Shown: positions 22,052 to 37,364 of the stretch, piece after piece | How positions within the stretch are numbered: position 1 is the first letter of the stretch | How the letters are laid out: each line of letters opens with the position of its first letter | Source of the DNA: Candidatus Latescibacterota bacterium | GTDB taxonomy: Bacteria; Latescibacterota; UBA2968; GCA-2709665 | Direction: 5' to 3' | Length of the DNA: 64,000 nucleotides | Assembly (NCBI GenBank): GCA_965222075.1 | Contig: OZ244937.1 | Span: forward strand, 4,000,001 to 4,064,000 | Program-made: the position numbers and the translations under genes | The notes under the pieces: model-generated | Told to the model about the DNA's origin: nothing | What the model saw: only the letters and a program-made list of their open reading frames with translations | Databases searched by the model: none

Positions 22052-22184
22052 CTTAGCCAGAATCCTATTGGGGCACCCATGATGATGAAAATAGTTGCAT
22101 TAACAGACTTGTACTGTAACGTCCGCCGTCCGTACACGCCCTCTCACGCGTTTCGCCTCTGCGATCCCACCACCACCACGCCTG

Positions 22185-22211
22185 CCTGTCTGCGTGCGAC
22201 GCACAGGCAGG
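22185..22211. repeat. CCTG-ended mini-palindrome (27 bp)
   Basis: CCTGTCTGCGTGCGACGCACAGGCAGG. Confidence 0.9.
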
Positions 22212-22389
22212 CGGGCTGGCGCCCCTAACTTGCCGACTCCCCCGGGTTGGTGTGGGGTGAAGGGGCTTTTCCGCGCAGATCCCCCCAGCACCTGCGCCCA
22301 AAAACGCCCAAAAGGTCCGCAGGGCACAAACGCCTGCTTACACCACAGGCGCAGTTCGCGGAAAAGCAGCCCCCGCGGCGTTTGAGCGG

Positions 22390-22422
22390 CCTGCCTGCAG
22401 CGCGGTGCGCCGCGCAGGCAGG
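22390..22422. repeat. CCTG-ended mini-palindrome (33 bp)
   Basis: CCTGCCTGCAGCGCGGTGCGCCGCGCAGGCAGG. Confidence 0.9.
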
Positions 22423-22749
22423 CGCCCTTCTTTTTCGGCCTTTTTCTTGGGCGAACCAGTAGTTTCCGGTTAGGATTTTGCAGAGGGGAGACAGCGAGGT
22501 CACAGAAGGCTTGATAAAAGGCGCTCTCCATGAAAGATTAGAGTTGTCAGTAAAAGACTCTACCCTTTCAAAGGAGGTGCCCATGTCGATCCTGTCCTGT
22601 TCCCCACTGTCTCCCATGGTAGAAGAAAAAGGATTTCCTAAAGGATCGCCAACATTTTCTGTCCTGCTTGGGCCTTTGGAAGCTTGCTTACCTTATCTGA
22701 CTCCGTTGGAATCAGGTAGCAACAAGCCGTTGACTTACACGTTTGCGCA

Positions 22750-22778
22750 CCTGTCTGCGTAAGGAACGCACAGGCAGG
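22750..22778. repeat. CCTG-ended mini-palindrome (29 bp)
   Basis: CCTGTCTGCGTAAGGAACGCACAGGCAGG; removal restores ..FAHQIRGL.. Confidence 0.92.
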
Positions 22779-22821
22779 TCAAATTCGGGGCTTAGTGTAT
22801 TATCATACAGAGACTTGCACG

Positions 22822-22854
22822 CCTGCCTGCCGCGCCGAACGCGGCGCAGGCAGG
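22822..22854. repeat. CCTG-ended mini-palindrome (33 bp)
   Basis: CCTGCCTGCCGCGCCGAACGCGGCGCAGGCAGG; removal restores ..ETCTSAQD.. Confidence 0.92.
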
Positions 22855-22889
22855 TCTGCTCAGGATCTGCTTTTCGCGGCAAGATGTGA

Positions 22890-22916
22890 CCTGTCTGCGT
22901 GCAACGCACAGGCAGG
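22890..22916. repeat. CCTG-ended mini-palindrome (27 bp)
   Basis: CCTGTCTGCGTGCAACGCACAGGCAGG. Confidence 0.92.
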
Positions 22917-23021
22917 TGGGTTTGTGAACCGATTGCTGGTGCCCCCATCAGGTCTTGGTAAGAGCACTTTTTATGAAGCCAATGCCAGTCGGGGCAGCAC
23001 TCAGATGATCGAGTTGGTGGA

Positions 23022-23048
23022 CCTGTCTGCGTGCAACGCACAGGCAGG
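23022..23048. repeat. CCTG-ended mini-palindrome (27 bp)
   Basis: Identical to 22890-22916. Confidence 0.92.
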
Positions 23049-23657
23049 TCGACTTTCTAAGAAAGCCGCCAAATGCGTAGGCCGCTCTTACGCTGAGCTT
23101 GGCCATTTGGTGGTCATCGACGGGAGCCTGATTGGTGCGTGTTTGTCCATGACCTGGGCAGACGTATCTTGGAGATGTGCGCAAGGCCAAGATGCACTTA
23201 GGCTTGGATCTTTCCGGCTCGATTCCAAGAAAGATGATCCTGACCGAAGGGAGAGGCGCGGAAAGACCGTTTGTCTCTCATCTTCTAAAAGAAGGTGAAA
23301 CCGGCGTTCTGGATCGGGGCTACCAGGACCATCAGCGGTTTGATGCCTGGATTGCAGAAGGCAAGCACATAGTGGTGCGCTTGAAGAAGAACACCAAATG
23401 GGAAGTCATAGAAGCCCTACCATTTGAAAAAGGCACATCTATCTTCTTTTTTTCCAAAGTCTTACTGGGTGATCCCGTGCACAGGATGACCCATCCAGTC
23501 TACCTAATAGGCTTCGAAAGTCGAGGCAAAACATACTGGATCGCTACCGACAGAGAGGACCTGACCGCAGAGCAAATCGCCTTCATTTTCTCGCTTAGAT
23601 GGCAAGTTGAAACCTTCTTCGCCTGGTGGAAAAAGCACCTCAAGGTCTATCATCTCA

Positions 23658-23711
23658 CCTGCCTGTGCGTTGCACGCTTGCCTGCGCGCAGCGCGCAAGC
23701 AGGCAGACAGG
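23658..23711. repeat. Nested mini-palindromes (27 bp outer + 27 bp inner at 23677-23703)
   Basis: Outer is the exact reverse complement of the 22890 copy; inner CTTGCCTGCGCGCAGCGCGCAAGCAGG; removal restores ..YHLISRNPHG.. Confidence 0.92.
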
Positions 23712-23900
23712 TCTCCAGAAACCCTCACGGTGTCCTGGTGCAATTGCTTTCTGGACTGATCACTTATCTTCTGTTGGTGATCTATTTCCATCAACGCTAT
23801 GGACAACGGCCTTGTGTGAAATATCTGCGACAGTTGAGATGGGATATCCGACATGAAACCCAGCCACCGACCCTTGTGCATATCTACCTGGTGATACAGA

Positions 23901-23929
23901 CCTGCCTGCGCCGCAGCGCGGCAGGCAGG
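23901..23929. repeat. CCTG-ended mini-palindrome (29 bp)
   Basis: CCTGCCTGCGCCGCAGCGCGGCAGGCAGG; removal runs the frame to the TAA inside the right TIR. Confidence 0.9.
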
Positions 23930-24023
23930 CAGATACGCGGTTATCTCCACTGATTTTCCTATGGCTTTTGAACCCAGCAATTTTCTAACCGGAAATTGCT
24001 GGGGCGAACAAGAAAAAGGCCAA

Positions 24024-24052
24024 GAGTAAAAGAAAGGTTATTTTCTAAGCAG
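24024..24052. repeat. 29-bp dispersed repeat, copy 1
   Basis: GAGTAAAAGAAAGGTTATTTTCTAAGCAG, 28/29 to 31725-31753. Confidence 0.9.
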
Positions 24053-24091
24053 TTTCTCACACCCACCCTATTTCCGAGCCTCCCTCTGCAT

Positions 24092-37227: not shown

Positions 37228-37277
37228 CCTGCCTGTCCGGGGGACCTGTCTGCCGACGAGGCAGGCAGACAGGCAGG
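37228..37277. repeat. Nested CCTG mini-palindromes (29 bp outer + 21 bp inner at 37245-37265)
   Basis: CCTGCCTGTCCGGGGGA[CCTGTCTGCCGACGAGGCAGG]CAGACAGGCAGG. Confidence 0.88.
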
Positions 37278-37364
37278 CGTTTTTTGACATAAGCTCTTGT
37301 TTTAATAGGCTGATAACCTATGCAATGTTCACCCGGTCCCCTCCCCCGCCTAAACCAAAAAGCC

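Follow-up and report, generated by a model that had tools for sequence, protein, structure and literature searches.

Repetitive extragenic palindromic sequences (REPs) are patchily distributed between related bacteria and are thought to be moved as single-stranded hairpins by a Y1 enzyme of the HUH type; the descriptions of their spread mention no target-site duplication (TSD) (PMC3733652, PMC6006769). Their feet are tetranucleotides needed for cleavage (PMC6006769). In Pseudomonas, excision is described for REP doublets only, not for singlets (PMC3116915). CGTC-tagged REPs are abundant small palindromes, some located in open reading frames (ORFs), which "apparently lack a dedicated transposase" (Di Nocera et al. 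2013, PMC3733652); REPs located in ORFs are mentioned in PMC6006769 too. The way in which such palindromes spread is unsettled: single-hairpin mobility is unseen in the best-studied families, and several families have no known enzyme. Here we describe a palindrome family, the CCTG family, from a stretch of 64,000 nucleotides (the window) of a Candidatus Latescibacterota bacterium (GenBank assembly GCA_965222075.1, contig OZ244937.1, positions 4,000,001 to 4,064,000). Its members, 20-40 nt long, are among the smallest mobile DNAs known. Filled and empty sites strongly support that they are real, exact, and scar-free insertions. Insertion takes in the complete unit, first C through last G, at a purine^pyrimidine step (R^Y); target bases are neither duplicated nor lost, and the elements have been recently active. 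With base-exact boundaries from dozens of filled/empty pairs and a simple R^Y rule, the family is clean material for studying such spread.

The CCTG family resembles REPs and REPtrons in that imperfect palindromes of 20-40 nt occur in hundreds of copies, mostly extragenic and occasionally in frame in genes. It differs in its feet, CCTGYCTG and CAGRCAGG, and carries no GTAG, GTGG, or CGTC tag; the absence of GTAG, stated in the original prediction made from the letters of the window, holds for the end sequences in the window and in the genome. In REPtrons, the REP-associated tyrosine transposase (RAYT) is flanked by its own REPs, whereas no RAYT is flanked by CCTG elements at the loci L040-L059, and the lone copy at L039 is an insertion. 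While REPINs (REP doublets forming hairpins) and bacterial interspersed mosaic elements are inverted doublets at fixed spacing, CCTG units are singlets and, in contrast to Pseudomonas REPs, the single hairpin is the inserted unit. CGTC-tagged REPs have another tag, and for the CCTG family base-exact boundaries and empty sites are demonstrated. Unlike the miniature inverted-repeat transposable elements (MITEs) of DDE transposons, CCTG elements have no TSD, no parent element, and at most 40 nt. Rickettsia palindromic elements are palindromic selfish DNA in frame in functional genes (PMC3733652). Most CCTG copies, in contrast, are extragenic. The Rickettsia elements are also several times longer than 20-40 nt. 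Small dispersed repeats of cyanobacteria, reportedly described by Elhai and colleagues in 2008, are said to be mobile, hairpin-forming, 21-27 nt long, and often nested, and their insertions reportedly tend to replace a similar length of target. CCTG insertion, by comparison, is purely additive.

The source genome (G000) is a single contig of 5.36 Mb with 59% G+C. With the pattern CCTGYCTG-N4-24-CAGRCAGG, the window gave 9 matches, whereas 100 shuffles that preserved the dinucleotides gave none (mean 0.00, maximum 0). The 11 copies originally named, in 22185-23929 and 37228-37277, are all present, 9 by the pattern and two more as members of nested pairs, and a recount of their junctions returned the tally given before (A^T x4, G^C x4, A^C x2, and G^T x1). 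The length span of 21-33 nt given with it needs correction: lengths are 20-40 nt, with peaks at 27 and 33. Seven elements are inside one IS4-family insertion sequence (IS) and two inside an adjoining multi-copy repeat. About 40% of the copies in the genome are asymmetric; one strand (T-form) reads CCTGTCTG...CAGGCAGG, and its complement (C-form) reads CCTGCCTG...CAGACAGG.

DNA of related copies of this IS, in G001, a genome of the same genus, and in G004, lacks all six inserts (seven elements). Aligned to the IS of the window, the empty sites read GCGCA^TCAG, TGTGA^TGGG, GTGGA^TCGA, TCTCA^TCTC, and ACAGA^CAGA; the sixth, CACG^TCTG, has a 1-nt ambiguity. For A/T-flanked inserts the boundaries are unambiguous and run from the first C to the last G. 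The transposase protein has 3947 homologues at E<=0.001, typically 401 aa long, and 26 of the best 120 were aligned. At each of sites 1, 2, and 3, one row is filled, 24 are empty, and one is uncovered; at site 4, four are filled and 22 empty, and at site 5, seven are filled and 19 empty, with no row uncovered at either. The five in-frame sites are thus empty in 19-24 of the 26 rows and the inserted peptides are not native to the transposase, which was a check proposed with the original prediction. The companion claim, that cutting out the elements restores the reading frame, holds as clean homologue gaps at these five sites; two inserts, those at 22750 and 23901, have a length of 29 nt and break the frame.

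Occupancy is polymorphic between IS copies of 96-100% identity. Protein P0001 matches the C-terminal ORF of the window at 100% and is without the element at site 3 (22890). At site 5, proteins P0003-P0007 have the outer 27-mer alone, while the window has outer and inner elements, and at site 4 P0003 carries a second element nested within the 23022-type element. Public data, consisting of short assembled contigs from four runs of four studies, contain the same alternatives. Contigs joining 23657 to 23712, and so skipping exactly 54 nt, were found in 3 of the 4 runs (three studies), and contigs joining 22387 to 22421, skipping 33 nt, in all 4; one contig (run X11) joins 22820 to 22854 and skips the 22822 element. 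Since these contigs may stem from other copies or strains, they establish the existence of the empty form as DNA but not its origin within one cell line.

The same picture is obtained genome-wide. The source genome has 228 matches to the pattern, or 219 once duplicates sharing an end are dropped; flank statistics were made on 226 strict copies. For 60 of the 219 copies, a paralogous empty site exists in the same genome, and every one is an exact insertion. Neither these sites nor the six of the IS have a TSD, as originally predicted, or a deletion. Identical 25-36-mers occur at many unrelated sites, the flanks being unique in 201/219 copies, and stretches like the 54-mer recur in G000 and G019. 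Filled and empty alleles at nucleotide resolution, polymorphic occupancy, and identical copies at unrelated sites bear out the minimal non-autonomous mobile element proposed from the window.

Alternatively, the palindromes might be immobile, either native or selected structures such as terminators and protein-binding sites, or assembly artefacts of palindromes. With a simple codon-usage classifier made for this analysis, both flanks were non-coding in 142/219 copies against 534/3000 (18%) random sites, an enrichment that selected structures would explain, and one composite in the window is followed by a terminator-like T-run. Long-read assemblies can err at hairpins, and 29-nt copies of the window appear with 30 nt in public contigs. 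Such explanations are nevertheless highly improbable in view of the exact filled/empty pairs within conserved coding sequence, the 60 paralogous empty sites, and the recurrence of the same elements in assemblies made independently and in public contigs of four studies; nor did Rfam give a family match at E up to 1.

The family comprises 108 distinct sequences of 20-40 nt in the source genome. They are imperfect hairpins with conserved feet and variable, self-complementary cores. The hairpins fold, and subfamilies retain the positions of their mismatches, T.G at position 5 and C.A at position 9, although their cores differ. Elements are frequently nested in other elements, and a nested element recurs as a composite, so that cargo is tolerated. 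The units are singlets: distances between neighbours are broad, with 28/218 gaps below 200 bp and mixed orientations. With the replication origin and terminus placed from GC skew, the T-form is found on leading-strand sequence in 57 cases vs 36 (p=0.04). Clearly intragenic copies number 21, and 19 of them keep the frame. Length is divisible by three in 180/219 copies and in 82/108 distinct sequences, and 198/219 copies are stop-free in all six frames, against 55% with shuffled cores. A length of 3n together with freedom from stops in six frames would let copies survive inside genes.

The elements of the window illustrate this variety. Those at 22390, 22822, 23677, and 23901 have no assigned strand. 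In the multi-copy repeat upstream of the IS, a 27-nt T-form element (22185..22211, + strand, flanks G^C) has the paralogous empty site ...gcgcgcctg^cgggctggcg and a DNA fold of -6.7 kcal/mol. At the edge of this repeat, a 33-nt element with symmetric ends (22390..22422, flanks G^C) has 23 paralogous empty sites, gagcgg^cgccct, and folds with -15.5 kcal/mol (z -3.25). Within the IS4 transposase, the element at 22750..22778 (+) is inserted at FAH^QIR (flanks A^T); it has 29 nt and is a decayed 30-mer, as public contigs hold a 30-nt version with an extra base at 22765. It is followed by a 33-nt element (22822..22854) at TCT^SAQ, flanks G^T, and by two identical 27-nt T-form elements, one (22890..22916, +) at RCD^GF and the other (23022..23048, +) at LVD^RLS, both with flanks A^T. 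The 54-nt composite at 23658..23711 (-), inserted at YHL^ISR, consists of an outer 27-mer (23658-23676 and 23704-23711), which is the reverse complement of the 22890 copy, split at G^C by an inner element. This inner 27-mer (23677..23703) has the variant ends CTTGCCTG/CAAGCAGG, as previously noted; it occurs in 8 copies in the genome, 4 standing alone and 4 nested in other elements. Near the 3' end of the transposase gene lies a frame-shifting 29-nt element (23901..23929, flanks A^C), for which public contigs hold 30-nt variants; the C-terminus is altered in P0001-P0004 and P0008. Outside the IS, a 50-nt composite or nested pair with blurred internal boundaries (37228..37277, +) folds with -17.4 kcal/mol (z -3.86) and continues into a T-run. 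The sequence directly after it is CGTTTTTT (window 37228-37285), and composite and T-run could serve as an intrinsic terminator.

The family is patchy across one order of Latescibacterota. Copy numbers were surveyed in 41 relatives, which as related genomes are non-independent samples and in which repeat counts are underestimates wherever metagenome-assembled genomes are fragmented. Copies per genome range from 0 to at least 228, the value being at least 228 each in G009 and G021. High-copy genomes are G000, G002, G003, G009, and G018-G021, from three genera of family f1, and G024 of family f2; T- or C-form elements are abundant in all nine, and identical subfamilies are found in different genera. 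Many sister genomes of these have 0-6 copies, and in a survey of 168 Latescibacterota genomes no genome outside the order had more than 8. One genome with 8 copies, G047, has them mostly on short contigs (C1, C17, C130, C195, C208, C295, C511, and C527), 27-mers identical to those of the source genome included, and contig C277 of G064, like G047 from a distant family of the phylum, also holds an element or elements identical to those of the source genome. Both cases could be mis-binned contigs or horizontal transfer. The 33-mer with its flanks had no match in plasmid or phage collections. A pattern scan of IMG/VR returned at least 120 stretches; 49 of 132 matches examined were palindromic, and these viral matches were taken as chance because none was identical to the elements of the source genome and most were single. 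No account of such a family appears in titles or abstract openings on Latescibacterota palindromes or on these end sequences, nor in the passages of PMC12306157 that were consulted.

Among the 226 strict copies of the source genome, 177 have R^Y flanks, while R-Y steps make up 23.6% of the background. A purine is at position -1 in 206/226 and a pyrimidine at +1 in 197/226; C^G and T^A flanks never occur. Beyond +-1, complementarity between the flanks is at background level, and therefore an extended palindromic target is not required. The R^Y rule read from the window thus holds widely, but it is incomplete, as the target in the source genome is oriented, C-N-S-R^Y. This was seen when 90 unique asymmetric sites were oriented with the element as C-form, 5'-CCTGCCTG..CAGACAGG-3'. 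Position -4 is C in 72/90 sites (42/51 non-nested), compared with about 30% C in the genome, while the mirror position +4 is G in only 31/90; position -2 is never A, -1 is a purine in 86/90, and +1 is a pyrimidine in 82/90. Directly 5' of the C-form element, CCGA (18) is the most frequent 4-mer, followed by CAGA (9), CGCG (7), CCCG (6), and CCCA (6); CCGA, CAGA, and CGGA together make up 30/90 flanks. Judged by the commonest 4-mers, the target word C-N-S-R resembles the element's own 3' end, CAGA-CAGG. Among symmetric subfamilies, one has a weaker one-sidedness (21/39 vs 9/39) and another has none (27/50 vs 23/50).

Other genomes were compared with raw counts that were not de-duplicated. G at +4 after the T-form was found in 14/104 (G019), 10/92 (G009), 23/93 (G024), 19/61 (G020), and 39/80 (G021), and the mirror control gave 8/104, 28/92, 31/93, 8/61, and 8/80, respectively. 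Because the counts in G019, G009, and G024 do not replicate it, the oriented word is reported as a property of the source genome and not of the family. One 36-mer of G019 is always followed by the same 8 nt and is therefore carried in a larger repeat. By hand tally of the listed flanks, +1 is C in every distinct right flank in G019 and a pyrimidine in about three quarters in G024.

The reading we prefer, with a probability of about one half, is that the CCTG element is a REP-like transposon of one hairpin, an orphan mobilised in trans, probably by a HUH-type enzyme acting on single-stranded DNA. One DNA strand folded as a hairpin would be the moving form, and a trans-acting HUH/Y1 strand-transferase, similar to the IS200/IS605 or RAYT enzymes ("peel and paste"), would move it. 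Such an enzyme might cleave 3' of C-N-S-R, in the target as well as at the CAGA-CAGG end of the element itself, and the mismatches T.G at position 5 and C.A at position 9 may mark the active strand. The enzyme would not be a RAYT flanked by its own REPs. We infer this by analogy. HUH transposases are a known bacterial class inserting without TSD next to a short word, the fixed stem mismatches give the element a strand, and the one-sided 4-nt target in the source genome resembles the element's own 3' word. IS200/IS605 and palindrome-associated transposable elements are likewise without TSD, with a target word resembling their own 3' cleavage word (PMC6006769), the likeness in the CCTG family being that of the source genome. 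The analogy also draws on class 3 TnpAY1 genes, reported from Planctomycetes, Acidobacteria, and Proteobacteria, which are described with high-copy flanking hairpins that have a 5' CnGA foot and reach about 600 copies per genome (Quentin et al. 2018, PMC6006769). CCGA and CAGA are the commonest 4-mers 5' of the C-form elements, a likeness by description only; the CnGA foot belongs to the hairpin in class 3 and the tetranucleotide to the target in the CCTG family. IS200/IS605 elements are known for hairpin recognition and strand specificity. They differ in their separate left- and right-end hairpins, as the CCTG element is one hairpin with its boundary at the stem base, and no long element with the same ends, no TnpB, and no TnpA sharing its hairpins are found in the source genome.

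The Y1 genes of the source genome are an intact IS200 TnpA, a broken IS200-like gene, and two distant RAYT-like genes at 3.242 Mb and 1.859 Mb, which score 56 and 47 bits with NF047646 (cut-off 80). Neither TnpB nor an IS110-type gene was found, and the single IS91-like gene is broken, so that among the transposase types without TSD only Y1 genes are intact. As far as tested, the enzyme is outside the window, as had been proposed: the only Y1/HUH genes found are at 1.86, 2.07, 3.02, and 3.24 Mb and the window at 4.000-4.064 Mb. No class 3-like TnpAY1 gene was found in the source genome by PF01797 or the RAYT profile. An autonomous parent was sought as pairs of ends 150-6000 bp apart with at least 14/16 terminal matches, and all 18 pairs were separate small elements. 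In 18 intervals of 350-1600 bp between neighbouring elements of the source genome there was no HUH-like ORF, and six element clusters of G003 held nothing suggestive by eye, their ORFs not having been run against Pfam.

Several of these observations and others weigh against a HUH-type mover. The search of the Y1 and RAYT loci L001, L002, and L039-L059, fetched with about 1.5 kb or more on each side, and the co-distribution analysis in 41 genomes found no cognate enzyme. No strict CCTG element is beside a RAYT-like gene in L040-L059; one is beside the intact RAYT of L039 (G021), where the orthologous site in G009 is empty. The intact IS200 (L001) has its own, unrelated hairpins, and most loci inspected by eye (L039-L042, L046, L047, and L056) have GTAG-footed hairpins of other families. 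A RAYT above the NCBIfam cut-off is present in 9/41 genomes, namely six of the nine high-copy genomes and G004, G005, and G007 with 0-3 copies, and it is lacking in the high-copy genomes G000, G019, and G024. Orthologues of the 3.24 Mb RAYT were found among the 41 relatives only in G009, G012, G017, and G019, and IS200 TnpA is frequent in genomes with 0-6 copies. The elements themselves add to this. One hairpin cut at both feet is not the two-hairpin left-end/right-end architecture of IS200/IS605, the symmetric R^Y preference also fits a two-fold symmetric enzyme on duplex DNA, and the oriented word is not replicated in G019, G009, and G024. The replication-strand bias is weak, and that of IS608 is reportedly much stronger.

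The mover may instead be of another kind, a dimeric nuclease or recombinase making a flush R^Y cut in duplex DNA followed by blunt ligation, or a housekeeping replication or repair enzyme, in which case presence and absence of the family would reflect the history of invasion and not the distribution of an enzyme. We regard this as possible though clearly less probable. It would account for the R^Y preference on both sides, for the lack of a co-distributed Y1 or RAYT subfamily and of a RAYT consistently flanked by elements, for the asymmetry of the source genome not being seen in G019 or G024, and for the patchiness among close relatives with identical subfamilies across genera. The one-sided C at -4 in the source genome (72/90 vs 31/90 at the mirror position) argues for strand-specific recognition, however, and conserved asymmetric stem mismatches are typical of the recognition of a single-strand hairpin. 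We also know of no bacterial enzyme that makes flush duplex insertions without TSD.

A third explanation is cross-mobilisation by resident GTAG-type RAYTs that tolerate a different foot, so that no dedicated enzyme would be needed. GTAG-type REPs coexist with the CCTG family. The 1.86 Mb gene of the source genome contains and is surrounded by GTAGGGGC-type REPs, which reach about 200 copies genome-wide, a GTAGCACAAACTGTCAGTTTGTG hairpin is 3' of the RAYT-like gene at 3.24 Mb, and GTAGGGCAGGGATGCCC-type hairpins surround the G021-type RAYTs. Some RAYT-like gene is found in all 12 genomes of family f1 with at least 16 copies, and the G021-type RAYT is found only in the high-copy genomes G002, G003, G009, G018, G020, and G021. 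Cross-mobilisation is still unlikely, as CCTG elements have no GTAG foot, and G006, G010, and G022 have RAYT-like matches but 0-2 copies. The one RAYT-like gene found with the RAYT profile in G024 (117 copies) is of the type shared with G022 (0 copies). In described systems, each tnpA-REP is tied to its own REP family (PMC6006769). A comparison of copy number with candidate HUH/RAYT, GIY-YIG, or recombinase genes was originally proposed as a check; no Y1 or RAYT subfamily co-distributes with the elements. The contrast of 0 to more than 200 copies between sister genomes suits a search for the enzyme by phylogenetic profiling.

It may tentatively be proposed that the 20-40-nt hairpin is itself the transposing unit, the smallest mobile DNA with demonstrated boundaries, that it is moved by an enzyme other than Y1 or RAYT, either a new strand-transferase or a co-opted replication or repair function, and that its 3n and stop-free bias is adaptive; we would give this doubtful rather than even odds. 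If so, a novel or co-opted enzyme would explain why no transposase co-distributes with the family, and the excess of 3n and stop-free copies would reflect how the element lineage has adapted to persist within coding sequence. The original prediction had also listed findings that would speak against it: native peptides at the insertion sites, a TSD at empty alleles, loss of the R^Y bias genome-wide, and membership of a described REP or palindrome-associated class. None was found, the comparison with described classes having been made against the GTAG and CGTC classes alone.

The IS that hosts seven elements (22438..24022, +) has terminal inverted repeats and matches PF01609 and, when its insert-free homologue P0009 is scored, NF033592 (162 bits, cut-off 115). 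A blastn search of the source genome returned no second copy. Besides its elements, it has a 1-nt frameshift near 23164 in which the palindromes have no part: an insertion at 23164-23165 (GACGTATC vs GAC-TATC in relatives) disrupts the reading frame of the transposase. None of the covering contigs of the four public runs has the extra base, nor does P0001, the protein matching at 100%; it may therefore be private to the assembly or a consensus error. The multi-copy repeat at 22068..22459 (no assigned strand), which hosts the elements at 22185 and 22390, shares end sequence with the IS according to blastn and 14-mer counts. It recurs at 23996-24054, is up to about 390 bp long, has more than 40 partial copies in the genome, carries GGCCTTTTTCTTGGGCG..., the sequence of the IS ends, and has the look of a MITE descended from this IS4-family element. 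The 33-nt element is at the same site in some copies of the repeat, and 23 copies are empty.

The GTAG-footed REP family GTAGGGGC...GCCC was noted in passing. Its word occurs 218 times on both strands of the source genome, and it is seen at L047 (1365-1970) and at L056 in G024; a split search for high-scoring segment pairs gave empty sites for 0/83 of these REPs. One CCTG element is about 150 bp from the broken IS200 (L002). In three genomes, a RAYT-like HUH/Y1 domain is in frame in ORFs of 1203-1441 aa that look like DNA methyltransferases (L039 15927-19682 in G021, L041 1356-5015 in G020, and L045 1998-6320 in G003). The ORF in G003 has two RAYT-like inserts with REP-encoded peptides at the borders of each, so that in effect a complete REPtron has entered a gene in frame, and in G021 a 27-nt CCTG element is immediately beside the in-frame RAYT insert.

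The elements also matter for annotation, as they add peptides of 9-19 residues (e.g., LSACNAQAG and LPARSAQAG) to proteins and break CRISPR repeats and IS elements. Two ORFs of the source genome, at 318170-319207 and 496598-497899, each contain at least four CCTG elements in frame (LPAARCLAQAG, LPARSAQAG). The clusters to which they belong (318-320 kb and 496-500 kb) were rejected as enzyme genes; their ORFs are broken by many elements and, judged by eye, read like decayed IS or transposase copies. Should they prove to be dead ISs, copies of this sort are the main sinks of the elements. In a CRISPR-like array at 2.4928-2.4965 Mb (about 49 repeats, each 36 nt long, recurring every 71-77 bp), the first two repeats carry the same 27-nt element at G^C (2492830-2492856 and 2492929-2492955). 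A second array in the source genome, at 1.659-1.677 Mb, has about 89 repeats ending in GATTGAAAC.

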